Of a DNA stretch of 64,000 bases, positions 5,069 to 24,700 are shown in pieces (position 1 is the stretch's first letter; every line of letters starts with the position of its first letter). The stretch is from contig CAVROD010000001.1 in assembly GCA_963722795.1 (NCBI GenBank), positions 642,976-706,975 on the forward strand, given 5' to 3'. The notes below the pieces were generated by a model that made no database searches, was not told where the DNA came from, and was given only the letters and a program-made list of their open reading frames with translations. Source of the DNA: an uncultured Actinomycetes bacterium (lineage in GTDB: Bacteria > Actinomycetota > UBA4738 > HRBIN12). A program made the position numbers and the translations under genes.

Positions 5069-5186
5069 CCGTCGAAGGTACACAGGCCACGCGGTCAGCA
5101 CAGCGGCGTGGCCACCAGCATCGTCGTGGGTCACGCACCCGGGCCGGTGGTGGGGTCAGCACCCAGCGGTCGCGGAGACGATCCAG

Positions 5187-5260: not shown

Positions 5261-5378
5261 GACGGTCGGGGAGTCTACCAATGGGGTGCTGGCATCCCGG
5301 CCGGCGGACGCCTCCACGAGCGGCACCAACCGGCTCGTCACCCTGGTCGCTCACGCCGTGAACCGGCATGATGCGCGG

Positions 5379-7493
5379 ATGAACGCAGAGGCCCAGCCGC
5401 AGGTATCCGGTCCGATCGAGCGCGTGATGGTCGGCACCGACCGTTCACAGACGGCCGAGCGAGCCGTGCGATGGGCGGCCACCTTCGCCGAGGCCTTCGC
5501 CGCCGAGCTGCACATCGTGCAGGTGATCGTGCCTTCGAGCCCGGCCGACACCGAGCACGGCGCGGCCGAGGCGACCAGGGCACGCTCGGCGGCCGACGAC
5601 CTGCAGACGTACGCGCGCTCGATCGCCGGTGATCGCGCGCGCGGGCATGTCGTGATCCACGAGGATCCGGCGATGGCGATCGTGGAGGCTTCACAGGATC
5701 AAGCCATCGACGTGCTCGTGGTGGGCAACGCCGGCATGGCCGGACGCAAGGAGTTCCTGCTCGGCAACGTGCCGAACCGCATCAGCCACAACGCCAGCTG
5801 CACCGTGATCATCGTGAACACGATGGGCGACGGTCAGGTCGTCGCCGCAGCGCCCCGTCCCACCTCGGCGCGGGTGCGCGCGAGCGCCGCCGAGGACGTG
5901 GAGTTCCAGCCCCGGCTCACGGCGCGCGGCGGCCACATCGCCGCCGTCTTCGCCAAGCACGGCCTGAAAGAGCTCTTCGGCCGGCCCGACGAGGAAGGCG
6001 CGGTCGGCCGGCGCCGGCAGGGCAAGCGGTTGCGGTCCGCACTCGAGGAGCTCGGCCCCACATTCGCGAAGCTCGGCCAGATCCTGTCCACCCGGCCCGA
6101 CCTGCTGCCGCCGGAGTACATCGAGGAGCTCGCGACGCTGCAGGACGACGTGCCGCCGCTCACCGAGGAGCAGGTCGTGCAGGTGATGGAGCAGGAGATG
6201 GGCGTGCCGTGGGAGGACGTGCTCGACCACATCGAGCCCGCGCCGCTCGCCGCCGGCACGATCGCCCAGGTGCATCGCGCGACGCTCGCGACCGGTGACC
6301 CGGTCGTGGTGAAGGTGCAGCGCCCCGACGCGCGCGAGCAGATCGAGCAGGACCTCGCCCTGCTCGAGGTCTTCGCCGAGAAGGTCGGCGAGCGCCCCGG
6401 ACTGCGGCAGGTCATCGACATGGCCGCGGTCTTCGAGCACCTGTCGACCTCCCTGCACCGCGAGCTCGACTTCCGGCAGGAAGCGGGCAACATGGCGCGC
6501 ATGCGCGAGATCGTCGCGCCCTACTCGCGCCTGCGGGTGCCCGAGGTGATCGGCGACCTGTCGACGTCGCGCCTGCTGGTGATGCAGGACGTGCAGGGCG
6601 GGCCGATCTCGCTGGCGCCCGAAGGGGATGCGCGCACGGAGGCCGCGCGCCAGCTGCTCGAGAGCTTCTACAAGCAGATCATGGTCGACGGGTTCTTCCA
6701 CGCCGACCCGCACCCGGGCAACCTGATGTGGCGTCCCGCCGACGACACGCTCTACCTGCTCGACCTCGGCATGGTGGGCGAGGTCGGCCCCGAGATGCGC
6801 GAACAGCTGATGCTGCTGCTCATGGCCTTCTGGCAGGAAGACGTGCCCTTCCTCACCGACGTGTCGCTGATGCTGGCGGGGGCGATGGACCGCACCGACC
6901 TCGACGTCGACGCGTTCGGCGGCGAGATCGGCGAGATGGTGGCGAAGTACCGCACGGCGTCGCTGTCCGACATCCAGCTCGGACCGATCCTGCAGGAGAT
7001 GACCGAGATCTCGTTGCGGCACGAGGTGCCGCTGCCGGCGTCGCTCGCACTCACCGGCAAGGCGCTCGCCCAGATGCAGCTCGCGACGGCCGAGCTCGAC
7101 CCCGACCTCGACCCCTTCGACGTGGCCGGTTCGTTCCTGATGCGGGCCGTGATGCGTGACATGACGACGAAGATCGACCCGAAGGCGCTGTTCTACCAGG
7201 CGCAGCGGTTCAAGGTTCGCTTCCACCGGGTCGTGGAAGCGGTGGAGCGCCTGATCGGCGCCCGGCCGGGCCAGAAGCTCGAGGTGAACTTCCGCGCGGC
7301 CACCCTCGAGACGACGATCAGGCGGGCCGGGCGGCGCCTCGCCCTGGCGCTCACGGCGGGTGCGGCCATCCTCGGCACGGCGCTCACCGCGATCAGCGAG
7401 CGGGTGCCCACCTGGTTGCCGGTGACGTTCGGGGTCGGAGCGCTGTTGCTGACCCTCGGACTCGTCGTGGACCTGATCAGACGCCGGAACTAG
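5379..7493 (+). CDS. universal stress protein domain fused to ABC1/UbiB-family kinase-like protein
   Basis: ORF 5286..7493; the start is likely ATG 5379 (MNAEAQ). The N-terminal USP domain shows VMVGTDRSQTAERAVRWAA and VLVVGNAGMAGRKEFLLGNVPNRISHNASCTVIIVN. The ABC1/UbiB motifs are FAKLGQILSTRPDLLPPEYIEEL, AAGTIAQVHRA, FFHADPHPGNLMW and LLDLGMVG. There are two C-terminal TM helices. Confidence 0.85.
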   Translation: MNAEAQPQVSGPIERVMVGTDRSQTAERAVRWAATFAEAFAAELHIVQVIVPSSPADTEHGAAEATRARSAADDLQTYARSIAGDRARGHVVIHEDPAMAIVEASQDQAIDVLVVGNAGMAGRKEFLLGNVPNRISHNASCTVIIVNTMGDGQVVAAAPRPTSARVRASAAEDVEFQPRLTARGGHIAAVFAKHGLKELFGRPDEEGAVGRRRQGKRLRSALEELGPTFAKLGQILSTRPDLLPPEYIEELATLQDDVPPLTEEQVVQVMEQEMGVPWEDVLDHIEPAPLAAGTIAQVHRATLATGDPVVVKVQRPDAREQIEQDLALLEVFAEKVGERPGLRQVIDMAAVFEHLSTSLHRELDFRQEAGNMARMREIVAPYSRLRVPEVIGDLSTSRLLVMQDVQGGPISLAPEGDARTEAARQLLESFYKQIMVDGFFHADPHPGNLMWRPADDTLYLLDLGMVGEVGPEMREQLMLLLMAFWQEDVPFLTDVSLMLAGAMDRTDLDVDAFGGEIGEMVAKYRTASLSDIQLGPILQEMTEISLRHEVPLPASLALTGKALAQMQLATAELDPDLDPFDVAGSFLMRAVMRDMTTKIDPKALFYQAQRFKVRFHRVVEAVERLIGARPGQKLEVNFRAATLETTIRRAGRRLALALTAGAAILGTALTAISERVPTWLPVTFGVGALLLTLGLVVDLIRRRN

Positions 7494-7504: not shown

Positions 7505-7699
7505 CTAGAGGTCGACGTCGACCTCCCCGCCCTTCGACACGACCGTGGTGAGCTCGTCGGGCTTGGCCTCGCCCTTCTTGCGCACCGAGCGCATCACGAC
7601 CTTCTCGAGCACGAACGCGATGACGGCGAACGCCAGGCCGACGAGCCAGCGTTCGAACCGTCGGAAGCCCTTGGGCTTCGCGGCCTGGCGGGTCGTCAT
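7505..7699 (-). CDS. small single-pass membrane protein (hypothetical), last gene of the kinase operon
   Basis: 64-aa ORF whose ATG overlaps the stop of the upstream kinase (ATGA at 7696-7699). It has one hydrophobic helix, WLVGLAFAVIAFVL, then a basic and an acidic tail. Coding status is inferred mainly from this coupling. Confidence 0.5.
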   Translation of the reverse strand: MTTRQAAKPKGFRRFERWLVGLAFAVIAFVLEKVVMRSVRKKGEAKPDELTTVVSKGGEVDVDL

Positions 7700-9846
7700 G
7701 CGTTCCCCTCTCCGTCGTCACCGGGCGCCGACGCGCCGACCGGCACCCGGCCGGCCACGGTCGTGCCCGACCCCGGCCGGCTCGTGACCTCGAGCTCGCC
7801 GTCGAGCGCGCCGAGTCGGTCGGCCATGCCCTGCAGCCCAGTACCGTAGCCGGTCACGGCCTGATCGAACCCCACGCCGTCGTCGGCGACCGAGAACGAC
7901 AGCGACCCGTTCGCACGACGCAGGGTGACCGTGGCCCGGCTGGCGTCCGCGTACTTGGCCGTGTTCTGCAGAGCCTCGAGCGCCGAGAAGTAGACCGCGG
8001 CCTCGATGTCCTGGGGAAGGCGCTCGATGCCCTCGGCGTGCACCTCGACCGGCACCGGCGACTTGCGAGCCTGCGCGACGAGCGCCGCCTCCAGGCCCTT
8101 GTCGGCGAGCAGCGGTGGATAGATGCCGCGCGCCAGGTCGCGCAGATCATCGAGCGCGGTGGCCGTGTCGGTCTGGAGCTCGACCAGCATCTGCCTGGCC
8201 TTCGCGGGGTCGATGTCGACCAGCTGCTGCGCCAGGCGCTGGCGCACCTGGAGCGCGACGAGCTGCTGCTGGGCACCGTCGTGGATGTTCCGTTCGAGCT
8301 TGCGACGCTCGTGGTCCTGGGCGGAGACGAGGCGGCGCTGCGCGGCTTGCAGCTCGGCCAGACGCGCCCTGAGCGCCGACGTGAGCCGTTGGTTGCGGAG
8401 CACGAGCCCGGCCTGCGCCGCGAGGTCTCGAACGAGCCGTTCCTTCGACGGGTTCATCGGATCGTTCGGCGGCATCGCGACCGAGAGCGCACCGAGCAGC
8501 TCGCCGCGGTGACGCACCTCGACCGTCAGGTCGTCGTCGCGATCGGGGTCGGCAGGGTCCCCGGCCCAGGCGGCGACCTCGTCGAGCCCGTCACCGAGCT
8601 GCATCCACACCCGCGCACGCGCCGCGCCCACACCCTCGCCGAGCACCCGTGCGAGGCGGGCGAGGACATCGTCGGACGCATAGGCGCCTGCGAGGTGGTC
8701 GCCGAACGAGGTCATGACCTCGTAGGGGGTCGCACGGGCACCGTAGACCAGACGATCCGCCACGCGACGCGCTCGGGAGCGGACCGGCTGGAACACGAGC
8801 GCCACCACGGCCGCAGCCACCGCCGAGAGGATCGGATCACCCCGGGAGCCCACCAGCGCCCCCGCGCCGACCACCACGGCCAGGTACACCAGCGCGATCA
8901 GCGAGACCATGATCGCGAGCACGACGGTCTTGCGGATCACGAAATCGATGTCGAAGAGCCGGTAGCGGAGCACGGCGATGCTGATCGTCACCGGGATCAA
9001 CGCGAAGGAACTCGAGGCGATGATGCCTGCCCAGTTCTGCCAGTCCTCCGACGCGCCGATCGGGTTGACGATGATGGCCAGCGTGTAGAGCACCGCGATC
9101 ACGCCGGCTGCCCACGCCAGCCACCGGAGCTGCTCACGCTCCACCGGATCGCCGGCGCGGCGCAGTCGGCGGATCATCGCCACGGCTCCACCGACGATCG
9201 TGGCGGGCGCGATGACGACCAACACCTGGAGGAACGCGAGATCACCACCCTCGCCGAGCGCTGCGGCCGCGAAGGGGCTCTCGACGTCGGGCAGGTCGAA
9301 GTCGGCGCCGACCCCCGGGAGCAGCAGTTCGAGCGCGTACAGCACCACGAGGCCGACCCCGCACGACCACGCGAACCAGCGCCATCGGGGCGTCGGCAGG
9401 TGTCCGTCGGGGAAGAGCATCAGCAGGAAGCCCGACAGGCCGATGAACACGACCCAGCCTGGGTAGTGCAGCGCCAGGGCGAGACCGGCACCGGGGAGTT
9501 CCCCCTCGTGGGTGACCGAGACGTACCGGGCATACGCGGCGCCGGGGCTGAGGAAGAAGGCCCCGATCGCGAGCATCAACCAGCCGAGGGGGTTCCGGGG
9601 CCGCTTGGTCGCCAGCACGAGCCCGGCCACGGGGAACGTGAGGTAGATCAGCCCTTCGAACCCATCCCACTCCAGGTCGGAGTGGACCCCCTCGTTCAGG
9701 ATCTGGAGCCAGAGCGTCGCGACGTAGCCGAGCATCACGAGCGCACCGGCGGCCCAGGCGAGCCCGACGGCCCAGCGCGGCCCCGCCGGATCGACGCTCG
9801 GAGCGTCAGGCCGAGACATGGGACGGGCGCCTTTCACGGTCGACAT
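7696..9846 (-). CDS. multi-TM sensor histidine kinase, HisKA_3 type (paralog A)
   Basis: About 8 N-terminal TM helices with the conserved loop FPDGHLPTPRWRWFAW and the motif LRYRLFDIDFVIRKT. The middle is GAF-like. H-box ERNIHDGAQQQLVAL; HATPase_c boxes YFSALEALQNTAKYA, DDGVGFD and GTGLQGMADRLGALDG. The start is 9846 or ATG 9819; either overlaps the stop of paralog B (9806). Confidence 0.9.
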   Translation of the reverse strand: MSTVKGARPMSRPDAPSVDPAGPRWAVGLAWAAGALVMLGYVATLWLQILNEGVHSDLEWDGFEGLIYLTFPVAGLVLATKRPRNPLGWLMLAIGAFFLSPGAAYARYVSVTHEGELPGAGLALALHYPGWVVFIGLSGFLLMLFPDGHLPTPRWRWFAWSCGVGLVVLYALELLLPGVGADFDLPDVESPFAAAALGEGGDLAFLQVLVVIAPATIVGGAVAMIRRLRRAGDPVEREQLRWLAWAAGVIAVLYTLAIIVNPIGASEDWQNWAGIIASSSFALIPVTISIAVLRYRLFDIDFVIRKTVVLAIMVSLIALVYLAVVVGAGALVGSRGDPILSAVAAAVVALVFQPVRSRARRVADRLVYGARATPYEVMTSFGDHLAGAYASDDVLARLARVLGEGVGAARARVWMQLGDGLDEVAAWAGDPADPDRDDDLTVEVRHRGELLGALSVAMPPNDPMNPSKERLVRDLAAQAGLVLRNQRLTSALRARLAELQAAQRRLVSAQDHERRKLERNIHDGAQQQLVALQVRQRLAQQLVDIDPAKARQMLVELQTDTATALDDLRDLARGIYPPLLADKGLEAALVAQARKSPVPVEVHAEGIERLPQDIEAAVYFSALEALQNTAKYADASRATVTLRRANGSLSFSVADDGVGFDQAVTGYGTGLQGMADRLGALDGELEVTSRPGSGTTVAGRVPVGASAPGDDGEGNA

Positions 9847-11890
9847 CCGGGGCGACGTCCGAGGCGATCGGCACGCGACCGCTCACGGCGGTGCCGCTCC
9901 CGGGAGCGCTGCGGACCTCCAACGCTCCGTCGAGCGCGCCGATCCTGTCGGCGATGCCCTGCAGGCCGGACCCGTGCCCCGTGACGGTCGCGTCGAAGCC
10001 GTCGCCATCATCGGTGACCGTGAACGCCAGCGCATCGTCGTGGCGCTCCAACGTCACCGACGCATGCGAAGCATGCGCGTACTTCGCGGTGTTCTGCAGC
10101 GCCTCGAGCACCGAGAAGTAGACGGCGGCCTCGATCTCCTGCGGGAATCGCTCGACCCCGTTGGCCAGGACCGACACCGGGATCGGGGACTTGCGAGCCT
10201 GCGCTTCGAGCGCGGCGGCGAGACCCTTGTCGGCCAGCAGCGGCGGATAGATGCCTCGCGCCAGGTCGCGCAGGTCGTCCAGGGCGGCGGCCGTGTCGAC
10301 CTGGAGCTCGCCGATCATCGCCCTCGCCTTCGCGGGGTCACGCTCGACGAGCTGCTCGGCCAGACGCTGGCGGACCTGCAGCGCGACCAGCTGCTGCTGA
10401 GCCCCGTCGTGGATGTTGCGCTCGAGCTTGCGGCGCTCGTGGTCCTGGGCGGCGACGAGCCGCTTCTGGGCCGCCTGCAGGTCGGCCAGCCGGGCCCGCA
10501 GGGCGGACGTCAGCCGCTCGTTGCGGAGCACGAGGCCGACCTGTGCCGCGAGGTCGTGCACGAGCCGCTCCTTCGCCGGGTTCATCGGATCGCTCGGCGG
10601 CATCGACACCGACAGCGCACCGAGCAGCTCCCCCTGGTGCCGGACGTCGACGCGGAGGTCGTCGGGACTGCCGGCGTCGTCGTCGGCGGGCCAGGCGGCC
10701 ACCTCACGAAGATCGTCACCGATCACGAGGAGCACCCGGGCTCGGTCCGCACCGACGCCCTCGCCCAGGACCCGCGCGATGCGCGGGAGCACGTCGTCGG
10801 CCGAGTACGTCTCGGAGAGCTGATCACCGAACGTCGCCATCACCTCGTAGGGCGTGGCGCGCGTGCCGTAGACGACGCGGTCGGCGAACCGGCGGGCGCG
10901 AGCGCGCACCGGCTGGAACACGAGGGCCACGACGGCGGCCGCGAAGGCGGACAGGACGGGGCTGCCGCGCGACCCGACCAGGGTGCCGACGCCGACCACG
11001 AGCCCCGCGTAGACCACCGCGATCAGGGTCCCCATGACGGCGAACACGAGCGTCTTGCGGATCACGATGTCGATGTCGTACAGGTGGTACCGAAGGATGG
11101 CGACGCCCGTCGCGAGCGGGATCAGCATGAAGCTGAGCGCGCCGACACTCTGGATCACACCGCCCCACCCGCTGTCGTTCCCCAGGCCCGGGAGGAACGA
11201 GAGCGCGAAGGAGGTGGCCATCAGCGACGCCGCGTACGCGAGCCATCGGATCTGGTGCCGCACGACGTCGTCGTCGGGGCGCCGCATGCGCACGACGAGG
11301 GAGACGAACCCCCCCACGACGAGCAGCGGCGCCGAAAGCAGCAGGACCCCGATGGCATCGTAGAAGGGCCCGAACGCCTCGATGCCGATCGGGTTCTCGA
11401 CCCCTGGATAGCCCGAGTCGGCGAAGTCGCCGGGGTGGGTCCAGATCGCCACGGCGACCATGACCAAGCCGATACCGCAGGTCCACGCGAACCATCGCCA
11501 TCGCCGCGACGGAAGGTGGCCATCGGGGAACAGCAGCAGCAGGAACCCTGACCCCCCGATGAACGGCACCCAGCCCGGGCCTCCGAGCGCGAGCGCCAAC
11601 GGCCCGAACGGGAGATCGCGCTCGAGCGCGAGCGCTCCGTACGCGGCGATCGGGCCCAGCACGGCGAAGGCGAGCCCCATCGAGACCATCACCCACGCCA
11701 GGCGGGCGTCGGGACGTCGCCGAAGCACGAAGAGACCGACGGTCGGGAACGAGAGCACGAGCACGGTGAACGCCGCCTCTTCGGGCCTGCCCGCAGCGAC
11801 CTCGAGAGCGAGCGTCGCCGCCGCCCCCGCGAAGACGACCACACCCGCCGGCACGACGAGCCGCCGGAGCGTCCGTTCGTCCAGGCTCAT
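9806..11890 (-). CDS. multi-TM sensor histidine kinase, HisKA_3 type (paralog B)
   Basis: Same architecture and motifs as paralog A: FPDGHLPSRRWRWFAW, LRYHLYDIDIVIRKT, ERNIHDGAQQQLVAL, YFSVLEALQNTAKYA, DDGDGFD. Its ATG overlaps the stop of paralog C (ATGA at 11887-11890). Confidence 0.9.
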   Translation of the reverse strand: MSLDERTLRRLVVPAGVVVFAGAAATLALEVAAGRPEEAAFTVLVLSFPTVGLFVLRRRPDARLAWVMVSMGLAFAVLGPIAAYGALALERDLPFGPLALALGGPGWVPFIGGSGFLLLLFPDGHLPSRRWRWFAWTCGIGLVMVAVAIWTHPGDFADSGYPGVENPIGIEAFGPFYDAIGVLLLSAPLLVVGGFVSLVVRMRRPDDDVVRHQIRWLAYAASLMATSFALSFLPGLGNDSGWGGVIQSVGALSFMLIPLATGVAILRYHLYDIDIVIRKTLVFAVMGTLIAVVYAGLVVGVGTLVGSRGSPVLSAFAAAVVALVFQPVRARARRFADRVVYGTRATPYEVMATFGDQLSETYSADDVLPRIARVLGEGVGADRARVLLVIGDDLREVAAWPADDDAGSPDDLRVDVRHQGELLGALSVSMPPSDPMNPAKERLVHDLAAQVGLVLRNERLTSALRARLADLQAAQKRLVAAQDHERRKLERNIHDGAQQQLVALQVRQRLAEQLVERDPAKARAMIGELQVDTAAALDDLRDLARGIYPPLLADKGLAAALEAQARKSPIPVSVLANGVERFPQEIEAAVYFSVLEALQNTAKYAHASHASVTLERHDDALAFTVTDDGDGFDATVTGHGSGLQGIADRIGALDGALEVRSAPGSGTAVSGRVPIASDVAPDVDRERRPSHVSA

Positions 11891-14049
11891 GGTCCTGTCT
11901 CCGTCACTGAGACCTCGCCCCGGACCGTGGTGCCGGCACCCGGCGAGCTCACGATCGCGAGCTCGCCGTCGAGCGCCTCCAGCCGGTCTGCGATGCCCTG
12001 GAGCCCGGTCCCGTACCCGCCGGCTGTCGGGTCGAACCCCCGACCGTCGTCGCCCACCTCGAACCGCACGGTGTCGCCGTCGCGCTCGAGCGTGACCCAG
12101 GCGCGGGAGGCCTCGGCGTACTTCGCCGTGTTCTGCAGTGCCTCGAGCGCGGAGAAGTACACCGCCGCCTCGAGCGACCGCGGCAGTCGCTCCACGCCGT
12201 CGGCCGTGACCGTCACAGGGATCGGGGCCCGGCGGGCCTGCGCGTCGAGGGCGGCCGCCAGCCCTTGGTCGGCCAGCAGCGGAGGATAGATGCCGCGCGC
12301 CAGATCGCGAAGGTCGTCGATCGCGGTCGCGGCCTCGGCCTGCAGCTCGGCGAGCATCGTCTTCGCCGTCGCCGGGTCGCGGTCGACGAGCTGCTCCGCC
12401 AGGCGGAGCCGCACCTGCAGGGCCACGAGCTGCTGCTGGGCGCCGTCATGGATGTTCCGCTCCAGCCGTCGCCGCTCCTCGTCTTGCGCGTCGACCAAAC
12501 GCCGCTGCGCCGCGCGGAGGTCGTCGAGCCTGGCCTGCAGATCGGCCGTGAGCCGCACGTTCCGCATGATCAATCCGGCCTGGCCGGCCAGGTCGTGCAC
12601 CAGCGCGTCCCTTGCCGGGTCCATCGGATCGTTGGCAGGCATCGCCACCGCGAGCGCACCGAGCAGCTGGCCACGGTCCCCGATCGGATACACGGCGTCC
12701 ACGCCTGGGAGTGAGATGGGCGCCGGGCCTTCGGGGAGCGACACCCGCCCGTCGTCTCGACGTGATGCGTCCACGGGCCAGGAGGCCGCGATCCGCAGGG
12801 CGCCGCCCGTGCGGACCCAGACCTCCGTCCGGTCCGCGCCGATCCCCTCGCCCACCAACCGCGCCATCCTCGGCACGACGCTCTCGGCGTCGTAGGTCGC
12901 TCCCACCCGATCGGAGAACTCCGACAACAGCTCGTAGGGTGTGGCACGCTCGCCGTAGACCAGGCGATCGGCGAACCGAGTGGCGGCACGTCGAGCGGGC
13001 TGGAATGCGAGGGCCACGATCGCCGCCGCGATCGCGGACAGGAACGAACTCCCCCTCGACCCCACGAGCGCGCCGACGCCGGTCACGATCACCACGTAGA
13101 CCGCCGTCACGAAGAGCGCCAGCATCGCGACCAACAAGGTCTTGCGGATCACGAGCCCCAGGTCGTACAAGCGGTACCGCAGGATCGCGACGGCCATCGC
13201 GAGAGGGATCAACGCGAACGACGCGAGCGACGCGGTCTGCAGGGCCCGGACCCATCCTGGGGTGAGGGAACCGGGTTCCCAGCCGCTCACGGTGGTCCAG
13301 GTTGCGAGGAGCGCGGCCGTGTAGGTCACGGCCATCACCGCCGCGGCGGCTGCGACCCACATGATCTGCTGCCGCTCGTCGGCCCGTGCCCGCCGGAACC
13401 GCACGACCAGACTGGCGACCGCCCCGATCACGCCGATCGGGAGCACGAACAGACCGGCCCCGAGGACCTCGAGGGCCGGCACGGCGATCGGATTCTCGAC
13501 GCCGGGGTAGCCCTCGATCTGTCCGCCCGTGAAGATGATCCCGATCGATGCGGCGACCAAGCCGATCGTCACCATCCAGGCGAACCATCGCCAGCGCGGG
13601 CTGGGCAGATGCCCGTCGGGAAAGAGCAACAACAGGAACGTCGCCGGCAGGGCCACCACCGGGATCCACGTCCACCCGAGCAGCGCCGCGACCACCTCGC
13701 CCCAGGGCGCCTCGGAACCCGAGTAGATCGCCCACTCGGCGTATCCGCCGAACAGGTAGGACAGCCCGCTCGCGACGCCGATGCCGAGCAGCAGCCAGCC
13801 GACCGAGTTCTCGGGTCGTCGCGATGCGATCAGGATGCCTACCACCGAGAACATCACGGAGACCAGCAGGAGAACGAGGTCGCTCAGGCCGGGCGCGAGC
13901 ATGCCCATGTCGGAGGCGCGCCACGCGACCAACGAGAACACCACACCGACGACCGTCGCCCCGATCGATGCCGCGAACAGCTGCCAGGCCAACCGAGCCC
14001 TCGATCGATCGGGTGGCGGTCGGTCGACGTCAGCGCTCGAGGACGACAC
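11887..14049 (-). CDS. multi-TM sensor histidine kinase, HisKA_3 type (paralog C)
   Basis: Motifs FPDGHLPSPRWRWFAW, LRYRLYDLGLVIRKT, ERNIHDGAQQQLVAL, YFSALEALQNTAKYA and DDGRGFD. The GTG start at 14049 lies 20 nt inside the upstream regulator-cyclase gene. Confidence 0.9.
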   Translation of the reverse strand: MSSSSADVDRPPPDRSRARLAWQLFAASIGATVVGVVFSLVAWRASDMGMLAPGLSDLVLLLVSVMFSVVGILIASRRPENSVGWLLLGIGVASGLSYLFGGYAEWAIYSGSEAPWGEVVAALLGWTWIPVVALPATFLLLLFPDGHLPSPRWRWFAWMVTIGLVAASIGIIFTGGQIEGYPGVENPIAVPALEVLGAGLFVLPIGVIGAVASLVVRFRRARADERQQIMWVAAAAAVMAVTYTAALLATWTTVSGWEPGSLTPGWVRALQTASLASFALIPLAMAVAILRYRLYDLGLVIRKTLLVAMLALFVTAVYVVIVTGVGALVGSRGSSFLSAIAAAIVALAFQPARRAATRFADRLVYGERATPYELLSEFSDRVGATYDAESVVPRMARLVGEGIGADRTEVWVRTGGALRIAASWPVDASRRDDGRVSLPEGPAPISLPGVDAVYPIGDRGQLLGALAVAMPANDPMDPARDALVHDLAGQAGLIMRNVRLTADLQARLDDLRAAQRRLVDAQDEERRRLERNIHDGAQQQLVALQVRLRLAEQLVDRDPATAKTMLAELQAEAATAIDDLRDLARGIYPPLLADQGLAAALDAQARRAPIPVTVTADGVERLPRSLEAAVYFSALEALQNTAKYAEASRAWVTLERDGDTVRFEVGDDGRGFDPTAGGYGTGLQGIADRLEALDGELAIVSSPGAGTTVRGEVSVTETGP

Positions 14050-15316
14050 GGAACACCTCCACGGCTTCCTCGCGCCCCTTCACGTGCCGAAGGCCGATCG
14101 GCTCGCACGCGATGCCGTCGGCGGCCGCCACGGTGCTCGCGGTCGCCACGATCTCGCCGCCGGCGGCCTCGTTCTGCAGCCGCGAGGCGATGTTCACGGC
14201 GTCGCCCACCACCGTGTACTCGAGCCGTCCGCCTCCGCCCACCGTGCCCGCGATCACGCGGCCGGTGTTCACCCCGATGCCCACGCCCATCACCGGCAGG
14301 TCGACGACGTCCCATCCCGCCGCGTTCAGCTCGGACTGCCTCGCCTGCATCGCGATCGCGCACCGCAGCGCCCGCTCGGCGTGATCGGACAACGGCTCGG
14401 GAGCACCGAAGACCGCCATCACCGCGTCGCCTTGGAACTTGTCGATCGTGCCGCCGTGGGCGGCCACGACCTCTGCCATCGCCTCGAGGTGCCGGCCGAC
14501 CACCGAGGCCACCTGCCGGGCCTCCAGGCGCTCGGCGATCGTCGAGAAGCCCCGGATGTCGCTGAACAGCACCGTGACCTCGACCTCCTGCGGCTCGATC
14601 GCCGTCTCGGGATGCGAGGCGAGCCGCTCGGCGAGCTGCTGCGGCACGAAGCTCGCGAGGGTGTTGCGGGAAGCGGTCTGCTCCACGACCGCGGCATGCA
14701 ACCGCTTGAACTCGTCGAGCAGCCCCGTCGACCCCTCACCGCCGCCCGCCATGCCGCGGAACAGGTCGGTCACCTGCCGGTCGACCGCTTCCTGCGTCGT
14801 GCCGAGCGCGACCGCGATGTCGGCGTACCCGAGGCCCTTGGCCATCATGTCGAGCAGCTCGCGGTCGCGCTCGGCGGCCTCGCCGCGCCCGGAGAGGCGC
14901 TCCGCGATCGTCGGGTCGACGGTGCTGCCGCCCGCGTGCACCTCGCGGATCGCCCGGGCGAGCTCGTCACCCTGCGCGATGCGGTCCTTCAAGAGGTAGG
15001 CCAGGCCGCTGTGCCCTCGCCCGAGCAACGCGATCGCGTATTCCTCGTCGTCGTGCGCGCTCAGCACCACGACGCCGGTGTCGGGGTGCTGCTCTCGGAT
15101 CGTGTGGGCGCAGTCGATGCCCTCGAGCTGGAACGAGGGCGGCATCTTGATGTCGGTGACGACGACGTCGGGCACGTGGTCGGCGGCGGCGGCGAGCAAC
15201 GACGGCCCGTCTTCGGCGACGCCCACGACCTCGATGTCGTCGTAGGAATCGAGCAGCGCGCGCACGCCCTCGCGCACGAGCACGTTGTCTTCGCCGAGCA
15301 CGACCGTGATGCTCAC
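14030..15316 (-). CDS. response regulator (REC + LuxR-type HTH) fused to class III adenylate/guanylate cyclase domain
   Basis: GTG start with GGAGGA about 8 nt upstream. REC hallmarks: GEDN, phospho-Asp in DVVVTDIKMPP, VVVLSAH, AYLLKD. GerE-like HTH: ERDRELLDMMAKGLGYADIAVALGTTQEAVDRQVTDLF. Cyclase homology domain: VTVLFSDIRGFS, IDKFQGDAVMAVFG, IGVNTGRVIAGTVG, EYTVVGDAVNIASRLQ. Confidence 0.85.
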   Translation of the reverse strand: MSITVVLGEDNVLVREGVRALLDSYDDIEVVGVAEDGPSLLAAAADHVPDVVVTDIKMPPSFQLEGIDCAHTIREQHPDTGVVVLSAHDDEEYAIALLGRGHSGLAYLLKDRIAQGDELARAIREVHAGGSTVDPTIAERLSGRGEAAERDRELLDMMAKGLGYADIAVALGTTQEAVDRQVTDLFRGMAGGGEGSTGLLDEFKRLHAAVVEQTASRNTLASFVPQQLAERLASHPETAIEPQEVEVTVLFSDIRGFSTIAERLEARQVASVVGRHLEAMAEVVAAHGGTIDKFQGDAVMAVFGAPEPLSDHAERALRCAIAMQARQSELNAAGWDVVDLPVMGVGIGVNTGRVIAGTVGGGGRLEYTVVGDAVNIASRLQNEAAGGEIVATASTVAAADGIACEPIGLRHVKGREEAVEVFRVVLER

Positions 15317-15351
15317 GCCGCCCGTCCTCCTGCTCTTCGTCCGGCTGGAAG

Positions 15352-16041
15352 GTGCCCGTGTACCATCCGCGCATGCTGCGGGTCGTGTTCGCAGAGGACA
15401 ACTACCTGGTCCGGGAGGGCACCGTCGCCTTGCTCTCCAGCGTCGACGACGTCGAGGTCGTCGGCACCGCCGCAGCCTACGACGAGCTCATCGCCGCGGT
15501 CGAGACCGGCGCGCCCGACGCGGTCCTGACCGACATCCGCATGCCCCCCACCGGCACCGACGAAGGCATCCGCGCTGCCAAGGCGATCAGGGCGTCGCAT
15601 CCGCGGGTCGGGGTGGTCGTGCTCTCGCAGTTCACCGACGAGGAGTACGCCTACGAGCTGCTGAAGGACGGCGCCGAGGGGCTGGGGTACCTGCTGAAGG
15701 AACGCGTGGCCGACGTCGGCGAGGTCGTTCGGGCGCTGAACGAGGTCGCCAGGGGCGGCAGCGTGCTCGACCCCAAGGTCGTCGAGGCGCTGGTGGCGGC
15801 GAAGGACCGAATGGCCCACTCCCCGCTCGCCTCTCTCACCGACCGCGAGCGCGAGGTGCTGAGTCACATGGCGCAGGGACAGAACAACGCGGCCATCGCC
15901 AAGTCGCTCTTCCTCACCGAGCGGGCGGTCGAGAAGCACATCAACTCGCTCTTCCACAAGCTCGACCTCACCGAGGAACCCGACGTGCACCGGCGGGTGA
16001 TGGCCGTGCTGGCCTTCCTTCGGGAGACCGAACAGGCGTAG
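15352..16041 (+). CDS. NarL/LuxR-family response regulator
   Basis: REC motifs AEDNYLVREG, DAVLTDIRMPP, VVVLSQF and GYLLKE. LuxR HTH: LTDREREVLSHMAQGQNNAAIAKSLFLTERAVEKHINSLFHKL. The start could be GTG 15352/15358 or ATG 15373. It is divergent from the regulator-cyclase gene. Confidence 0.9.
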   Translation: MPVYHPRMLRVVFAEDNYLVREGTVALLSSVDDVEVVGTAAAYDELIAAVETGAPDAVLTDIRMPPTGTDEGIRAAKAIRASHPRVGVVVLSQFTDEEYAYELLKDGAEGLGYLLKERVADVGEVVRALNEVARGGSVLDPKVVEALVAAKDRMAHSPLASLTDREREVLSHMAQGQNNAAIAKSLFLTERAVEKHINSLFHKLDLTEEPDVHRRVMAVLAFLRETEQA

Positions 16042-16116
16042 GCTCCCACCGCCCGCAGCCCTTGCCCGACCGTGATCACACGGCCGAGAGCGACGCCAAG
16101 AGCGTTGGAGGATGCG

Positions 16117-16494
16117 ATGAGTGGACGCGAGACGGTCGAGGCCCTGGTGGCCACCCTGAATGCGCGCAACGTGCCCGGCATGGACGACCTGTTCCACGAG
16201 GACGCCGTCATGGACTGGCCGCAGTCCGGGGAGCGCATCGTCGGCGGGGACAACCGGCGCGGCGTGTACAACGCGTTTCCGGCCTTGCCGACGATCACGC
16301 CGAGGCGCATCGTCGGCGAGGGGGACCTGTGGACACTCGAGGCGACGCTCGACTACGGCGGTGGGGCCGTGTACCGGGCGGTGTTCATCTTCGAGATGCG
16401 CGACGGGAAGATCGCCAAAGAGACCGCGTACTGGGCCGAGTCGTTCCCGGCGCCCGAGTGGCGTGCCGCCTGGGTCGAGCAGATGAACGCCTGA
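16117..16494 (+). CDS. SnoaL-like / NTF2-fold protein
   Basis: ORF 16072..16494. ATG 16117 is preceded by GGAGGA. The roughly 125-aa sequence (LFHEDAVMDWPQSGERIVG ... AVFIFEMRDGKIAKETAYW) is typical of the SnoaL/ketosteroid-isomerase-like fold. The fold call is made by eye. Confidence 0.6.
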   Translation: MSGRETVEALVATLNARNVPGMDDLFHEDAVMDWPQSGERIVGGDNRRGVYNAFPALPTITPRRIVGEGDLWTLEATLDYGGGAVYRAVFIFEMRDGKIAKETAYWAESFPAPEWRAAWVEQMNA

Positions 16495-16496: not shown

Positions 16497-16907
16497 TCAC
16501 TGCGCACGCCTCGTATCGACGATGAACACGCTGCAGGGTGAATGCCGCAAGACCAGGTTCGGCACGCTGTCCTTCACGCGCCACCACGACCCGCGGGTGC
16601 CGCGGTTGCCGACCACGATCGTGTCGGCGCCGACCTCGGCGGCCACCTCGCAGATGCGGTCGGCCGGGGCGCCGCGCTCGATGCGGGTCGTCAAGGGCAC
16701 CTCGGGGTAGCGACGCGTGAGCTCCGAGAGGTAGCGGCCCGGGTCCGGGGCTCGGTCGGGGTCGACGGCGGCGCGCACGTCGCCGTCGGGGCGAACGAGC
16801 AGCACCATCAGTTCGGCGCCGCGATCTCGGGCGAGGCGTGCGGCATCCTCGACGGCAAGATCGGCCGCCGAGCTGGAATCGGTTCCCACCAGGATCGTGG
16901 TCATCAT
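16497..16907 (-). CDS. universal stress protein
   Basis: The C-terminal 136 aa of ORF 16497..17300, starting at MMTTILVGTDSS with GGAGGAG upstream. USP motifs: TIVVGNRGTRGSWWRVKDSVPNLVLRHSPCSVFIV. Confidence 0.8.
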   Translation of the reverse strand: MMTTILVGTDSSSAADLAVEDAARLARDRGAELMVLLVRPDGDVRAAVDPDRAPDPGRYLSELTRRYPEVPLTTRIERGAPADRICEVAAEVGADTIVVGNRGTRGSWWRVKDSVPNLVLRHSPCSVFIVDTRRAQ

Positions 16908-17078: not shown

Positions 17079-17348
17079 GTGGCCATGACGCTCGAGTGGA
17101 CGGACGGCCCGGCGACCCCCAAGGGCACAGAGATGGCGTCGGCGCTGCTGGCGCAAGCCACGTCGACCCTCGAGTTCTCCGTGCGCGACGACGGACGCGG
17201 CTTCGACCCAGGCGCGGCCCGCCGAGGGACCGGCCTGCTCGGCATCGAGGACCGGCTCGACGCGATCGGTGGCTCGATGCGCATCGAGACCGCCCCCCAT
17301 GAAGGGGTCACCCTGTCCGGCAGCGTGCCAATGCGGGACCCTTCGTGA
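17079..17348 (+). pseudogene. relic of a sensor kinase (HATPase_c G1-G2 region only)
   Basis: The 89-aa ORF retains LEFSVRDDGRGFDPGAARRGTGLLGIEDRLDAIGGSMRIETAPHEGVTLSGSVP, which aligns with the C-termini of the neighbouring kinases. No H-box or N-box is visible in any frame upstream. Its stop overlaps the GTG of the next kinase (GTGA at 17345-17348), as in the tandem array. Confidence 0.7.
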
Positions 17349-19423
17349 CGCCGCGAGCCGCGCGACGTTCGGTGCGCGTGCTCGGGGCGATCGCCATCGT
17401 CGCGTTCGCCGCTGCGCTCGGATTCACGTTCGGCGATGCGACCGCCTCCGCAGACGACGTGCCGTTCATCGTGATCATGTCGATCGGCCTGACGCTGTTC
17501 ACCGGCATCGGTCTCGCGATCGCCTCGAAGGCTCCGCACAACCCCATCGGCTGGCTATACGCCGCGGTCGGCGTCGGCATGCTCACCACCATCGCCACGA
17601 ACGAATACGCGATCAGGGGCATGACCGACCTCGACCTGCCGTGGGTCGGGTACGTGCAGTTCTTCAGCAGCATCGCCATCGTGATCGCGGCCGGGGCCAT
17701 CATCCTCGCGCTGCTGCTGTTCCCGTCGGGGACGCCGCCCTCGCCCAGGTGGCGGGCGGTCGGCTGGCTCCTCGCGCTCGGCTGCGCGGTCGCCGTGATG
17801 GCGGGATCGCTCCAGCCGATCCTCTTCGAGGTCGGCGAGGCGCTGTTCGTGCCGAACCCCTTCCACGTGAGCGCGATCGAGTCGTTCACGTGGCTCGGCC
17901 TCGCTGCGACGCTGCTCATCCTCAGCGCTGCGCTGGGTGCCGTGGCCTCTCTCACCGTCCGGTACTGGCGCTCACGCGGTGAGGAGCGCCAGCAGGTGCG
18001 GTGGCTGGTGTTCGCGGTCGGCCTGGTCATCGCGACGTTGCTGGTGACGCTCGCGATCAGCGGCACACGCTTCGGCGACATCGCCTTCTTGGTCTTCACG
18101 GCGTCGATCCTCGTCGGCCTGCCGGCCGCGACCGCCGTCGCCGTACTGCGCTACCGCCTCTACGACCTCGATCTCGTGATCAAGAAGACGCTCATCTTCG
18201 CGATCACGGTCGTGCTCGTGATGATCGCGGGGGTCGGCGTCCTGCTCGCGCTCAGCAGCCCGCTCACCGACATCGTGCCCGACGAGACCCAGGCGGTCGG
18301 CCTCACGGGGCTCGCGATCGGCGCCCTGAGCTGGCCACTGTGGCGGCTGGCCCGGCGCATCGGCGACCGGCTCGTCTACGGCGGCCGGGCCACCCCCTAC
18401 GAGGCGCTCACCGAGTTCTCCGACCGGCTCTCGGAGACCTACGCGACCGACGACGTCGTGCCGCGCATGGCCGCGGTGCTCGGGCAGAGCGTCCGGGCGG
18501 CCGAGGCGCGGGTGTGGCTGCGCCTCGGCGGTCGCTTCCAGCCCGCCGCCGTGTGGCCGGCCGACGCGGCGCCGGTTCGAAGCGTGCCGACCCTCGGCGA
18601 CTCGCTGCCCGACCTGCCCGGCGCCGACCGGGCCGTGGAGGTGCGGCATCGCGGCGAGCTGCTCGGGGCGCTGTCGGTGGTCTCGCGAGCGAACGACCCG
18701 ATCGGCTCCGAGCGCACGCGGCTCATGCGCGACCTCGCCGCGCAGGCCGGACTCGTGCTGCGCAACGTGCGTCTCATCGAGGAGCTGCGGGCCTCACGTC
18801 AGCGCCTGGTGGCCGCCCAGGACGAGGAACGTCGCAAGCTCGAACGGAACATCCACGACGGCGCGCAGCAGCAACTCGTCGCGCTCGGCGTGAAGCTGCG
18901 GCTGACCGATTCCTTGATCGACCGCGACCCGGCGAAGGCGCACGAGATGATGGCGCAGCTGCAGACCGAGACGCAGGCGGCGGTCGACGATCTGCGCGAC
19001 CTTGCGCGCGGCATCTATCCCCCGCTGCTCGCCGACCAGGGACTCGAGGCGGCGCTGCAGGCCCAGGCACGCAAGTCGCCCACGCCGGTGCGCGTCGAGG
19101 CCGAGGGCGTCGGACGCTACGACCAGGACCTCGAAGCGGCCGTCTACTTCTCGTGCCTGGAAGCCCTGCAGAACATCGCGAAGTACGCGAACGCGGGAAG
19201 CGCCTCGATCGCGCTCGCGCAGCGGAACGGATCGCTCGAGTTCCGAGTGCGCGACGACGGCGTCGGCTTCGACCCCGCCAGCGTCGCACGCGGCAGCGGT
19301 CTGCAGGGCATGACCGACCGCATCGACGCGATCGGCGGCACCCTCGCGATCGAGAGCGCTCCGGGGTCCGGCACCACCGTGCGCGGAAAGGTGCCGTGTC
19401 GGCAACGCGAGCGGCAGGGTTAG
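17345..19423 (+). CDS. multi-TM sensor histidine kinase, HisKA_3 type (paralog D)
   Basis: Motifs LFPSGTPPSPRWRAVGW, LRYRLYDLDLVIKKT, ERNIHDGAQQQLVAL, YFSCLEALQNIAKYA, DDGVGFD and GSGLQGMTDRIDAIGG. Confidence 0.9.
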   Translation: MTPRAARRSVRVLGAIAIVAFAAALGFTFGDATASADDVPFIVIMSIGLTLFTGIGLAIASKAPHNPIGWLYAAVGVGMLTTIATNEYAIRGMTDLDLPWVGYVQFFSSIAIVIAAGAIILALLLFPSGTPPSPRWRAVGWLLALGCAVAVMAGSLQPILFEVGEALFVPNPFHVSAIESFTWLGLAATLLILSAALGAVASLTVRYWRSRGEERQQVRWLVFAVGLVIATLLVTLAISGTRFGDIAFLVFTASILVGLPAATAVAVLRYRLYDLDLVIKKTLIFAITVVLVMIAGVGVLLALSSPLTDIVPDETQAVGLTGLAIGALSWPLWRLARRIGDRLVYGGRATPYEALTEFSDRLSETYATDDVVPRMAAVLGQSVRAAEARVWLRLGGRFQPAAVWPADAAPVRSVPTLGDSLPDLPGADRAVEVRHRGELLGALSVVSRANDPIGSERTRLMRDLAAQAGLVLRNVRLIEELRASRQRLVAAQDEERRKLERNIHDGAQQQLVALGVKLRLTDSLIDRDPAKAHEMMAQLQTETQAAVDDLRDLARGIYPPLLADQGLEAALQAQARKSPTPVRVEAEGVGRYDQDLEAAVYFSCLEALQNIAKYANAGSASIALAQRNGSLEFRVRDDGVGFDPASVARGSGLQGMTDRIDAIGGTLAIESAPGSGTTVRGKVPCRQRERQG

Positions 19424-24659: not shown

Positions 24660-24700
24660 GGCGCTGAGTGTAGCCACGGCTGGCGACGCGAGCCGACCGC

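Follow-up and report, generated by a model that had tools for sequence, protein, structure and literature searches.

A NarL-type response regulator fused to a class III cyclase, encoded with paralogous sensor kinases and a divergent sibling regulator in uncultured Actinomycetota

The locus described here raises the question of what a response regulator of NarL descent does when its polypeptide continues into a class III nucleotide cyclase, and of how the sensor kinases encoded with it might feed such a protein. The locus lies in the genome of an uncultured soil actinobacterium (assembly GCA_963722795.1, contig CAVROD010000001.1), in a 64,000-nt stretch at positions 642,976 to 706,975 that is referred to below as the window. 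All six reported ORFs, five on the minus strand and one encoding a divergent NarL-type regulator, are present (Table 1), and their third-position GC of 0.89-0.97 matches the expectation for real genes in a genome of 70% GC. From the fusion gene to the 64-aa ORF, successive genes overlap by 20, 4, 41 (or 14) and 4 nt, as a first-pass annotation of this DNA had reported. The fusion gene stands first in this tightly packed operon; behind it come the genes of the three paralogous kinases, all of HisKA_3 type, and that of the small membrane protein.

Table 1. Features of the fusion-regulator locus, in window coordinates.
Feature	Position	Strand	Basis
Fusion protein of 428 aa (REC, vestigial HTH, helical linker with CTE-like segment, class III cyclase domain)	14030..15316	-	ORF, Pfam, orthologues, AF2
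Receiver domain, residues 1-127	14936..15316	-	PF00072, invariant residues, alignment to NarL 1A04, VraR, DosR
Vestigial LuxR/GerE-type HTH, residues 146-190	14747..14881	-	hhalign, AF2 helices, orthologue conservation
Gly-rich loop, long helix (194-217) and CTE-like segment (about 216-237)	14597..14737	-	AF2, alignment to 6FHT
Class III (IIIb-like) cyclase catalytic domain, residues 241-428	14033..14596	-	PF00211, 3R5G/6FHT alignment, Foldseek
Sensor histidine kinase C, 720 aa	11887..14049	-	HisKA_3 and HATPase_c; 20-nt overlap with fusion gene
Sensor histidine kinase B, 694 aa	9806..11890	-	HisKA_3 and HATPase_c; overlaps the kinase C gene at ATGA
Sensor histidine kinase A, 716 aa	7696..9846	-	HisKA_3 and HATPase_c; AF2 model
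64-aa single-pass membrane protein, last gene of operon	7505..7699	-	GC3 0.97, hydrophobic segment, 60/60 loci
Sibling NarL-type response regulator (REC and GerE)	15352..16041	+	Pfam; probable true start ATG 15373
Conserved TACCAT (-10-like hexamer)	15361..15366	+	Recurrence across loci
Small universal stress protein (USP), convergent with NarL gene	16497..16907	-	PF00582
Kinase remnant (C-terminal ATPase part), directly upstream of kinase D	17079..17348	+	tblastn
Sensor kinase D, fourth paralogue, 692 aa, NarL side	17345..19423	+	HisKA_3 and HATPase_c
Lone receiver protein of 137 aa, gene convergent with that of kinase D	19420..19833	-	PF00072 1.4e-22
USP-domain/UbiB-family kinase-like protein, 735 aa, convergent with end of operon	5286..7493	+	TIGR01982

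An assembly or frameshift error could in principle have merged two neighbouring genes, one for a NarL-type regulator and one for a cyclase. Fragmented genes at 23.5-28.7 kb show that the window is not free of indel errors: DNA polymerase III delta' in three pieces, and an MFS transporter and topoisomerase I in two each. However, an uninterrupted fusion protein of 422-432 aa was found in 76 of 80 related loci, and these 76 independent orthologues, all from MAGs of uncultured Actinomycetota, stem from many studies. The family comprises more than 120 clusters at 90% identity, with the same length and domains, and about 75 species-level genomes, and the junction region is conserved. Because of these orthologues, the fusion is judged to be real, and an artefact is effectively refuted, its probability being negligible.

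The databases name such proteins automatically ('class 3 adenylate cyclase/DNA-binding NarL/FixJ family response regulator'). In agreement with the first-pass annotation, no characterised example came to light in searches of the literature. Within its own lineage the architecture is common. Its parts are of known kinds; the combination is new and uncharacterised.

The receiver domain matches REC over residues 6-104 (Pfam E 7.5e-17; 61.9 bits vs a cutoff of 30.2) and aligns with those of NarL (1A04), VraR and DosR. The receiver hallmarks that had been read from the sequence are in place: D10, D55, S86 and K110 are invariant across 46 members of the fusion family and E9 is at least 90% conserved. 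The receiver is intact in sequence, with the phospho-acceptor Asp55 encoded at 15152..15154 on the minus strand. Over residues 3-189 the fusion protein is 47% identical to its neighbour (BLASTP, E 1e-49), which carries both REC and GerE by Pfam and is the paralogous, divergently transcribed sibling that had been proposed. The two genes are divergently adjacent in 80 of 80 loci, and the recognition helix of the sibling is invariant among its orthologues. The intergenic gap is 35 bp if the sibling starts at GTG 15352 and 56 bp if, as is more probable, it starts at ATG 15373.

The C-terminal domain matches Guanylate_cyc (PF00211; Pfam E 1e-24, 87.6 bits vs a cutoff of 21.9), and its predicted fold resembles those of 2W01, 3R5G and 1WC0, with target-normalised TM values of 0.82-0.86 by Foldseek. 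Alignment with Pseudomonas aeruginosa CyaB (3R5G) and with Cya2 (6FHT) places D253, K293, D297, T368, N375 and R379 at the catalytic positions, so that all six residues picked out in the first reading are canonical. The metal-binding D253 and D297 and the transition-state N375 and R379 are invariant in the family, while K293 (at least 90% conserved) and T368 (invariant) align with the Lys and Thr of CyaB. A Lys and a Thr (replacing Asp) as the substrate-specifying pair define subclass IIIb. By this alignment, the active site of the fusion protein is intact and class IIIb-like.

The domain need not be a regulated adenylyl cyclase: it might use another nucleotide and make cGMP or a similar product, or its activity might be constitutive or absent, with the receiver acting chiefly as a phosphate sink for the kinases. 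Among solved structures, its nearest relative is Cya2 (2W01), a guanylyl cyclase. However, Thr368 is shared with the ATP-specific CyaB, the position of Cya2's Glu is occupied by Lys, as in the E488K variant, an adenylyl cyclase (6FHT; PMC5995499), and the retention of the catalytic residues throughout the family argues against a dead domain. Such a departure from a regulated adenylyl cyclase seems very improbable.

Ahead of the catalytic core, residues 216-237 are conserved and align to the cyclase-transducer element (CTE) of 6FHT, an element of class III cyclases set out for Cya2 (PMC5995499). S216-P225 is at least 90% conserved in the 46 family members, although the motif reads LASF rather than FGRY, with Ser replacing the conserved Arg. 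In an AF2 monomer model of the fusion protein (pLDDT 75.9), a Gly-rich loop and a long helix of low pLDDT (194-217) follow the HTH segment, and residues 192-240 as a whole are of low confidence.

The HTH segment lies between the receiver and this helix. The first-pass annotation held that a LuxR-type HTH is kept, which is true of its ancestry, but not of the complete domain. HMM searches of 14030..15316 returned REC and Guanylate_cyc, but no Pfam match to GerE (PF00196) at E <= 0.01; among relatives, P0121 scores 14.6 bits against the GerE cutoff of 23.5, and P0125 and P0129 have no match. Nevertheless, residues of the segment align with the sibling's GerE domain over 43 columns covering helices 7-9 (hhalign probability 96.4%, E 1e-9), and AF2 predicts three helices, at 149-159, 164-171 and 175-190. 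Helix 10, which mediates dimerisation on DNA in the LuxR/NarL-type family, is missing, the sibling's last 25 residues having no counterpart in the fusion. Conservation among the 76 orthologues is 0.92 in REC, 0.84 in the cyclase domain and 0.81 in the remnant. The HTH is vestigial, though conserved.

A regulator with two outputs, in which the remnant still binds DNA and cAMP is made at a promoter, for example, or the divergent promoter region is autoregulated, would draw on the clear homology of the remnant to a functional GerE HTH and on a NarL 1A04 alignment that reaches residue 187. The exposed residues of its recognition helix (TTQEAVD.QVT) are strongly conserved, which fits an intramolecular latch and equally fits a retained specific binding function. 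The sub-threshold GerE score and the loss of helix 10 speak against DNA binding. So does a change in the recognition helix, where the Lys-His that is invariant in the sibling has become Arg-Gln, flanked by invariant Glu176 and Asp179 in a segment with a net charge of about -4, without proving that binding is lost. Moreover, relative P0133 (48% identity) has REC joined straight to the cyclase domain and lacks the HTH segment altogether. A bifunctional protein is accordingly rated unlikely; most likely, the remnant no longer binds DNA and acts as an intramolecular latch or linker.

The kinases of the operon, A to C, and a fourth paralogue on the far side of the sibling, kinase D, each match HisKA_3 and HATPase_c above threshold. 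Kinase C is 51-54% identical to kinases A and B, and kinase D is 44-47% identical to A-C. Kinase A begins with about 10 TM helices, followed by a GAF-like domain and a signalling helix, and ends in the dimerisation/phosphotransfer (DHp) and catalytic ATPase (CA) domains (AF2 model of residues 1-500, pLDDT 82). The N-terminal half (residues 1-380) matches no named sensor family in Pfam or NCBIfam, and its membrane part found no fold match in the PDB by Foldseek (E >= 2.6e-3, TM < 0.3); the GAF-like part alone matches the DosT GAF domain (2VZW, target-normalised TM 0.52). The phospho-His motif HDGAQQQ is invariant. Across 230 kinases, almost no variation is seen in DHp helix 1 (HDGAQQQLVAL) or helix 2 (DDLRDLARGIYPPL).

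The same sensor is also found joined directly to a cyclase. In P0137 and at least 120 related clusters, the kinases' sensor, 36% identical to kinase A residues 24-495 (E 1e-72), is fused to a cyclase domain, and the cyclase domains of these sensor-fused proteins are the closest relatives of that of the fusion regulator (57-60% identical). The pairing of the 10-helix membrane and GAF-like sensor with these cyclases is a Rosetta-stone link that connects sensor and cyclase in function.

The three-kinase operon that had been described is present here, but it is the exception: of 60 related loci, 40 have one kinase downstream of the fusion gene, 12 have two, five have three and three have none, giving at least one in 57 of 60 by summed match coverage. 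One kinase is the norm. The 64-aa gene follows the kinases in all 60 loci with enough flank; its product has one hydrophobic segment (residues 18-36) and no family match in Pfam or NCBIfam. Nor does the system end at 16041, where the first reading had bounded it. Beyond lie the USP gene and a second array, consisting here of the kinase remnant, kinase D and the lone receiver, and containing 0-4 kinases in related loci. The remnant matches only kinase residues about 594-713 by tblastn, and close relatives have two further full kinases in its place, which points to the leftover of a deleted kinase. About 75 of 80 loci have the USP gene next to that of the NarL-type regulator, and the lone receiver ends the array in many.

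Do the two arrays serve separate regulators? Kinases A-C might signal to the cyclase regulator only, and kinase D and its array to the sibling only, the lone receiver perhaps being a phosphate sink for the NarL side. In 205 of 210 cases, the best-matching kinase from a different genome sits on the same side of the two regulators as the kinase compared, the two arrays evolving as separate orthologous sets. The sides also show modest differences at H+13/14 and H+40/41 of the DHp domain. Kinases A-C are also co-oriented and overlapping with the fusion gene, while the opposed USP gene parts kinase D from the NarL gene. On the other hand, the two sides hardly differ at DHp H+0 to H+10 and H+12 or in helix 2, mean transmitter identity is 0.59 between sides vs 0.60 within the NarL side, and the fusion and its sibling share four of the five receiver helix 1 positions that we take to govern partner choice. 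The three loci without any fusion-side kinase nevertheless keep the fusion. Two insulated pathways are a possible arrangement, to be entertained tentatively; the nearly invariant docking helices make it plausible that all kinases converge on both regulators.

The reading that we regard as probable, with moderate confidence, is that of a kinase-fed adenylyl cyclase response regulator, activated by phosphorylation, branched with a transcriptional sibling and using its HTH remnant as a latch or linker. Such a protein would have originated as a duplicate of the neighbouring NarL-type regulator in which a cassette took the place of the fourth HTH helix. This cassette, made up of a helix, the CTE and the class IIIb-like cyclase domain, is related to that of the membrane cyclases that bear the local kinases' sensor module. 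The membrane kinases encoded downstream, each with about 10 TM helices, a GAF-like domain and DHp and ATPase domains of the HisKA_3 type, would sense a membrane or small-molecule cue and phosphorylate Asp55; operon linkage and the near-invariance of their docking helices support such a transfer indirectly. This might free the three-helix remnant from the receiver, cause the receivers to dimerise, or both. The 194-217 helices could then pair and the CTE bring two cyclase domains into a head-to-tail dimer with two active sites that would convert ATP to cAMP, while the sibling would turn the same kind of input into transcription.

Several known systems share parts of this design. A receiver and a class III cyclase occur in one polypeptide in generic REC-CHD proteins (e.g. 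P0227, where REC is joined directly to CHD), Spirulina/Anabaena CyaC and Dictyostelium ACR. CyaC is a multi-domain hybrid whose catalytic domain (1WC0) is among the best structural matches of the fusion's cyclase domain. ACR combines histidine-kinase, receiver and cyclase domains (PMC3009899). Unlike theirs, the receiver of the fusion derives from the NarL type. Between it and the cyclase stand the conserved HTH remnant of three helices and a long helix, and beside the gene lie a sibling transcription factor gene and variable kinase arrays. The class IIIb enzymes CyaB (3R5G) and Cya2 (2W01/6FHT) are about 35% identical to the fusion's cyclase domain, before whose core lies a CTE-like segment; its residues for metal, substrate (Lys/Thr) and transition state are those of CyaB. 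However, both are regulated by membrane or extracellular sensors on the same chain, CHASE2 in the case of Cya2 (PMC5995499), and neither by a phospho-receiver.

NarL/VraR/DosR-type (LuxR/FixJ) regulators have a homologous receiver, helix 6 and HTH helices 7-9 as well as HisKA_3 partner kinases, whereas the fusion fails the GerE threshold, lacks helix 10 and ends in an enzyme. The mycobacterial cyclase-ATPase-LuxR proteins Rv0386, Rv1358 and Rv2488c (PMC3466318; bioRxiv 10.1101/2024.03.06.583649) likewise unite a LuxR-type HTH with a class III cyclase within a single actinobacterial polypeptide, but in reversed order, with the cyclase first and a bona fide HTH last, an ATPase/TPR region and no receiver; the fusion runs from REC through HTH remnant to cyclase and has no ATPase. 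In REC-GGDEF enzymes (PleD, WspR and small Rec-GGDEF proteins), receiver phosphorylation controls a nucleotide cyclase that works only as a dimer (compare PMC8041772 and PMC2270323). This is a functional analogy, as the output domains are not homologous and both catalytic fold family and product differ. The Pak kinases of Sphingomonas, several paralogues with divergent inputs and similar transmitters, feed the shared regulator PhyR (compare PMC5898713). Here, too, there are several paralogous sensor kinases with similar transmitters, which may likewise feed a shared regulator, although these stand in tandem arrays whose copy number varies between species, and there are two sibling outputs.

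The window ORFs that were scanned include no cNMP-binding effector. The best PDB match of the USP is 5AHW, the cAMP-bound MSMEG_3811. At the other end of the locus, a USP-domain/UbiB-like gene lies beyond the 64-aa gene in most loci; the 735-aa protein matches the UbiB model TIGR01982 with 5.3e-97, below the model's cutoff. Between the two regulators, the TACCAT hexamer stands 6 nt upstream of ATG 15373, and GTGTACCATCCGCGCATG or a close variant was found in nearly all loci; the sibling gene may have a leaderless transcript.

The fusion of a receiver (REC) with a class III cyclase domain is the first of five minus-strand ORFs arranged head to tail, which overlap by 20, 4, 41 (14 counted from an internal Met) and 4 nt. 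Third-position GC is 0.89-0.97 in all five, the signature of real genes in a window with about 70% GC throughout, and the GTG start of the fusion ORF is preceded, 9 nt upstream, by an AGGAGG. The ORFs, their overlaps and the divergent NarL-type sibling regulator are located where the first-pass annotation had placed them. Pfam searches found REC (residues 6-104) and Guanylate_cyc (245-419) in the fusion, HisKA_3 and HATPase_c in each of kinases A-C, and REC and GerE in the sibling. The 64-aa protein at the end of the operon had no Pfam match, and in NCBIfam neither it nor the fusion nor the kinases reached the cutoff of any family.

Table. Features of the fusion locus and its surroundings (window coordinates)
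Feature	Coordinates	Strand	Length	Remarks
Distant HisKA_3 kinase	479..1987	-		tblastn; 36-49% identical to cytoplasmic part of kinases A-D
MacB/FtsX-type permease	1870..3930	-		
ABC ATPase	4301..5134	-		
USP-UbiB-like protein	5286..7493	+		second USP-domain gene flanking the system in most related loci
Small ORF ending operon	7505..7699	-	64 aa	
Kinase A	7696..9846	-	716 aa	
Kinase B	9806..11890	-	694 aa	
Kinase C	11887..14049	-	720 aa	
Fusion	14030..15316	-	428 aa	
Sibling (NarL-type)	15352..16041	+	229 aa	length from 15352
SnoaL-like gene	16072..16494	+		between sibling and USP
Small USP	16497..16907	-		best PDB match 5AHW (cAMP-bound MSMEG_3811), E 1.7e-8
Kinase ATPase-end remnant	17079..17348	+	89 aa	tblastn; overlaps kinase D start by 4 nt
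Kinase D, fourth paralogue	17345..19423	+		tblastn
Lone receiver	19420..19833	-		tblastn
DNA polymerase III delta', three pieces	23543..23956, 23920..24330, 24327..25025			
MFS transporter, two pieces	24992..25909, 25870..26739			
Topoisomerase I, two pieces	26746..27987, 27984..28745			
OmpR-type regulator	35474..36163			
DUF4118/HisKA kinase	36160..37713			
TrkA-like gene	37959..38621			

Since fragmented genes are present in the window at 23.5-28.7 kb, it was important to exclude an assembly artefact that had joined two genes. When one genome per GTDB species was scanned, 212 stretches were found to encode relatives of the fusion, and the best 80 of these loci, all from soil or sediment MAGs, match it over essentially its full length at 73-94% identity. 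Seventy-six of the 80 encode an uninterrupted fusion of 422-432 aa. The artefact was rejected on these grounds, and the regulator and cyclase form a single gene, as first proposed. The fragmented genes themselves are housekeeping genes that reflect either assembly indel errors or pseudogenes; the ORFs of the fusion locus are intact.

The receiver is intact, in agreement with the first-pass annotation: D10, D55 (in DVVVTDIKMPP), S86 and K110 are invariant in an alignment of 46 sequences. The cyclase domain aligned best with Cya2 (2W01, and 6FHT, its E488K adenylyl-cyclase variant), Pseudomonas aeruginosa CyaB (3R5G), the light-activated cyclase bPAC and CyaC (1WC0). By alignment, the metal-binding positions are D253 (in FSDIRGF, the same in CyaB) and D297; N375 and R379 form the transition-state pair, and T368 corresponds to the CyaB Thr. 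K293 is aligned with the Lys to which 6FHT owes its adenylyl cyclase activity (PMC5995499). All of these are invariant in the family except K293, which is conserved in at least 90%, so the catalytic residues read from the sequence alone do occupy canonical positions. An AlphaFold model of the fusion (pLDDT 75.9) superimposes on 2W01, 3R5G and 1WC0 with target-normalised TM scores of 0.82-0.86. Together, the residue alignments, their conservation and the model superposition support a class IIIb-like adenylyl cyclase as the probable output. A conserved stretch, residues 216-237, can be aligned with the cyclase-transducer element (CTE) of 6FHT, but has LASF in place of the FGRY motif.

Between receiver and cyclase lies what is left of a DNA-binding domain. 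A LuxR-type helix-turn-helix (HTH) had been described as retained, which holds only for part of it. GerE was not detected in the fusion at E ≤ 0.01, the sole Pfam trace over the segment being Sigma70_r4_2 (0.0076, under its cutoff). Among full-length relatives, GerE reaches 14.6 bits against a cutoff of 23.5 in cluster P0121 and is absent in P0125 and P0129. The BLASTP alignment of fusion and sibling nevertheless extends through residue 189, and profile-profile comparison matched the remnant to helices 7-9 of the sibling HTH with 96.4% probability over 43 columns, while the last 25 residues of the sibling (helix 10) have no counterpart. The model has helices at 149-159, 164-171 and 175-190, with a Gly-rich loop linking the last of these to a long helix (194-217). 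The recognition helix of the sibling, LTERAVEKHINSLFHKL, is invariant among its orthologues; the fusion has TTQEAVDRQVT.LF at this position, with Glu176 and Asp179 invariant.

The mean major-residue frequency is 0.81 in the remnant, 0.92 in REC and 0.84 in the cyclase domain. The remnant is therefore under constraint, which rules out a decaying linker. That it still binds DNA, as its homology to helices 7-9 might allow, is a minority possibility given the sub-threshold GerE scores and the missing helix 10. In their inactive state, NarL-type receivers are packed against the recognition helix, as in the NarL structure. We read the remnant as a retained element, presumably structural or regulatory. 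In P0133, a relative of 359 aa (48% identical) found in an Acidimicrobiales MAG, REC leads directly into the cyclase domain.

Many genomes are predicted to encode receiver-controlled adenylyl cyclases, of which few have been studied; we know of none that derives from a NarL-type transcription factor. CyaC has the receiver-cyclase combination. Generic REC-CHD proteins (REC plus a cyclase homology domain, e.g., cluster P0227) share it with the fusion, and it is also found in Dictyostelium ACR (PMC3009899). Mycobacterial LuxR-cyclase proteins differ from the fusion in having the opposite order and no receiver (PMC3466318; bioRxiv 10.1101/2024.03.06.583649), and among the 991 actinobacterial LuxR proteins of one census, CHD+LuxR is listed and REC+LuxR+CHD is not (PMC3466318). 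A full-text literature search found no description of a REC-HTH-cyclase protein, in line with the first-pass annotation, which knew of no characterised example in a multi-kinase operon.

The architecture is narrow at the 50% identity level, where only four clusters among the best 150 matches from 1.84 billion representatives have it in full length (P0121, P0125, P0129 and P0126, all uncultured, the last with an additional C-terminal receiver). It is common within its own lineage, however: among 5.8 billion proteins searched, more than 120 clusters from uncultured Actinomycetota have REC and cyclase domains at 82-96% identity to the fusion. All are 404-433 aa long, nearly all 425-433, and they carry the automatic JGI name [quoted passage not shown]. 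Judged by its sequence features, the family is best described as putative class IIIb-like adenylyl cyclases of NarL descent that are controlled by a receiver and keep a conserved HTH stub.

Its setting is a conserved locus with variable kinase arrays. Across the best 80 of the 212 loci, the gene order is conserved: a lone receiver, 0-4 kinases and the small USP come first, then the NarL sibling next to the fusion, and beyond the fusion 0-3 kinases, the gene for the 64-aa membrane protein and that for the USP-UbiB-like protein. The sibling is divergently adjacent to the fusion in 80/80 loci, the small USP is present in about 75, and the 64-aa gene occurs in all 60 loci with enough flank. Downstream of the fusion there is one kinase in 40 loci, two in 12, three in five and none in three, as estimated from summed match coverage. 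The three-kinase operon that caught attention at first is real and, by these counts, represents the upper extreme. On the NarL side, where paralogues were located by tblastn of the local proteins, the window's array has shrunk to kinase D and a remnant that matches the paralogous kinases in their C-terminal ATPase part alone. Close relatives such as locus L001 have two further complete kinases at this position, which identifies it as a deletion remnant. The SnoaL-like gene is a lineage-specific insertion, which the window shares with its nearest relatives alone (L001-L003, L011, L014, L026, L037 and L050).

Two variations were seen among the relatives. One MAG (L030) has the sibling/fusion pair twice, at 4678..6615 and 9300..11272, about 4.6 kb apart; both copies have a USP of their own nearby. 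In L060 (about 13360..14160), a gene for an extra multi-pass membrane protein separates the 64-aa gene from the last kinase; this extra gene is also found in about 15 other loci (e.g., L051-L053 and L066-L070) and is absent from the window.

The sequence GTGTACCATCCGCGCATG (15361..15375), or a close variant, is present in nearly all related loci and includes a -10-like TACCAT that ends 6 nt ahead of the ATG at 15373. This suggests that the sibling mRNA is leaderless, with its true start at 15373 rather than at the GTG at 15352, and that its promoter overlaps the ribosome-binding region of the fusion gene. No conserved palindrome that might serve as an operator was seen in the 56-bp intergenic region, where TACCAT alone stood out.

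Each kinase begins with about ten predicted membrane helices and a GAF-like domain; a long signalling helix then leads to the dimerisation/phosphotransfer (DHp) and catalytic ATPase (CA) domains. Identity between paralogues is 14-60% in the membrane half versus 54-86% in DHp and CA. The membrane domain matches no Pfam or NCBIfam family, and an AF2 model of the sensor (pLDDT 82) gave no significant match in the PDB for the membrane part, only generic helical bundles (GPCRs and rhodopsins; E ≥ 2.6e-3, TM < 0.3); the GAF-like part alone resembles solved GAF domains.

The closest relatives of the fusion's cyclase domain among the matches listed are 57-60% identical and include proteins of about 715-720 aa. 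In these, as exemplified by P0137 (36% identity to kinase A residues 24-495, E 1e-72), the membrane and GAF-like sensor of the kinases is followed by a CTE and cyclase domain in place of DHp-CA. The one-component sensor-cyclase family comprises at least 120 clusters at ≥60% identity, of about 707-745 aa (P0137, P0142 and P0271-P0389; loci L081 and L082), with variable, uninformative gene neighbourhoods. One sensor module is thus predicted to drive either a kinase or, directly, this cyclase subfamily. The sharing of this sensor provides independent evidence for placing kinases A-C and the cyclase regulator in one pathway, and the family suggests a possible source of the fusion's cyclase cassette.

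Whether the two sides of the locus share their kinases is a matter on which the analyses point in opposite ways. Among 230 kinases from 81 loci, DHp residues H+0 to H+10 (HDGAQQQLVAL) and DHp helix 2, DDLRDLARGIYPPL, show almost no variation, whichever side of the regulator pair the kinase lies on. The two siblings also have in common four of the five receiver helix 1 positions that we take to govern partner choice. These near-identical docking surfaces fit a system in which many kinases feed both siblings and speak against insulated pathways. Conversely, in a nearest-neighbour analysis of 211 transmitters, the nearest relative in another genome was on the same side in 205/210 cases, and small side-specific differences occur at H+13/14 and H+40/41. 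This counts against sharing and fits insulation of the fusion side from the NarL side, or simply orthology.

The small USP retains the equivalents of the ligand-contact residues Gly10 and Gly114 of 5AHW and may possibly be a cAMP or ATP binder beside the cyclase. The cAMP lead is weak, since the third Gly of the G-x2-G-x9-G-S motif is an Asp (the motif reads ...D-S) and the conserved glycines are equally typical of ATP-binding USPs. No cNMP-binding domain was found among 20 further window ORFs scanned. A more comprehensive reading, which we regard as rather unlikely, would make the locus an evolvable hub for signal integration that is peculiar to a single lineage of uncultured soil actinobacteria. 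Tandem kinase arrays that expand and contract fast between species would all write onto the sibling regulator pair, so that the same inputs would set transcription and cAMP together; the conserved HTH remnant would be repurposed as a phosphorylation-released latch on the cyclase, and both conserved flanking USP-domain proteins would bind cAMP locally.

The family probably represents an output-domain swap with the intermediate still visible: the old DNA-binding domain persists as a conserved three-helix stub, with an unmodified sibling next door and donor-like membrane cyclases that share the sensor module of the local kinases. It would make testable how an HTH-releasing receiver can be converted to activate a dimeric enzyme, how a single input set is split between gene expression and a second messenger, and at what rate the kinase arrays turn over. 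It would further give an abundant group of uncultured soil Actinomycetota a cAMP pathway, although the practical impact is modest for now.

Other signalling genes are found in the window. The distant HisKA_3 kinase adjoins the permease and ABC ATPase genes; the longest ORFs of kinase and permease overlap by about 118 nt, and one start is probably later. An unrelated two-component pair, the OmpR-type regulator and DUF4118/HisKA kinase, adjoins the TrkA-like gene, and together these look like a potassium-related module.
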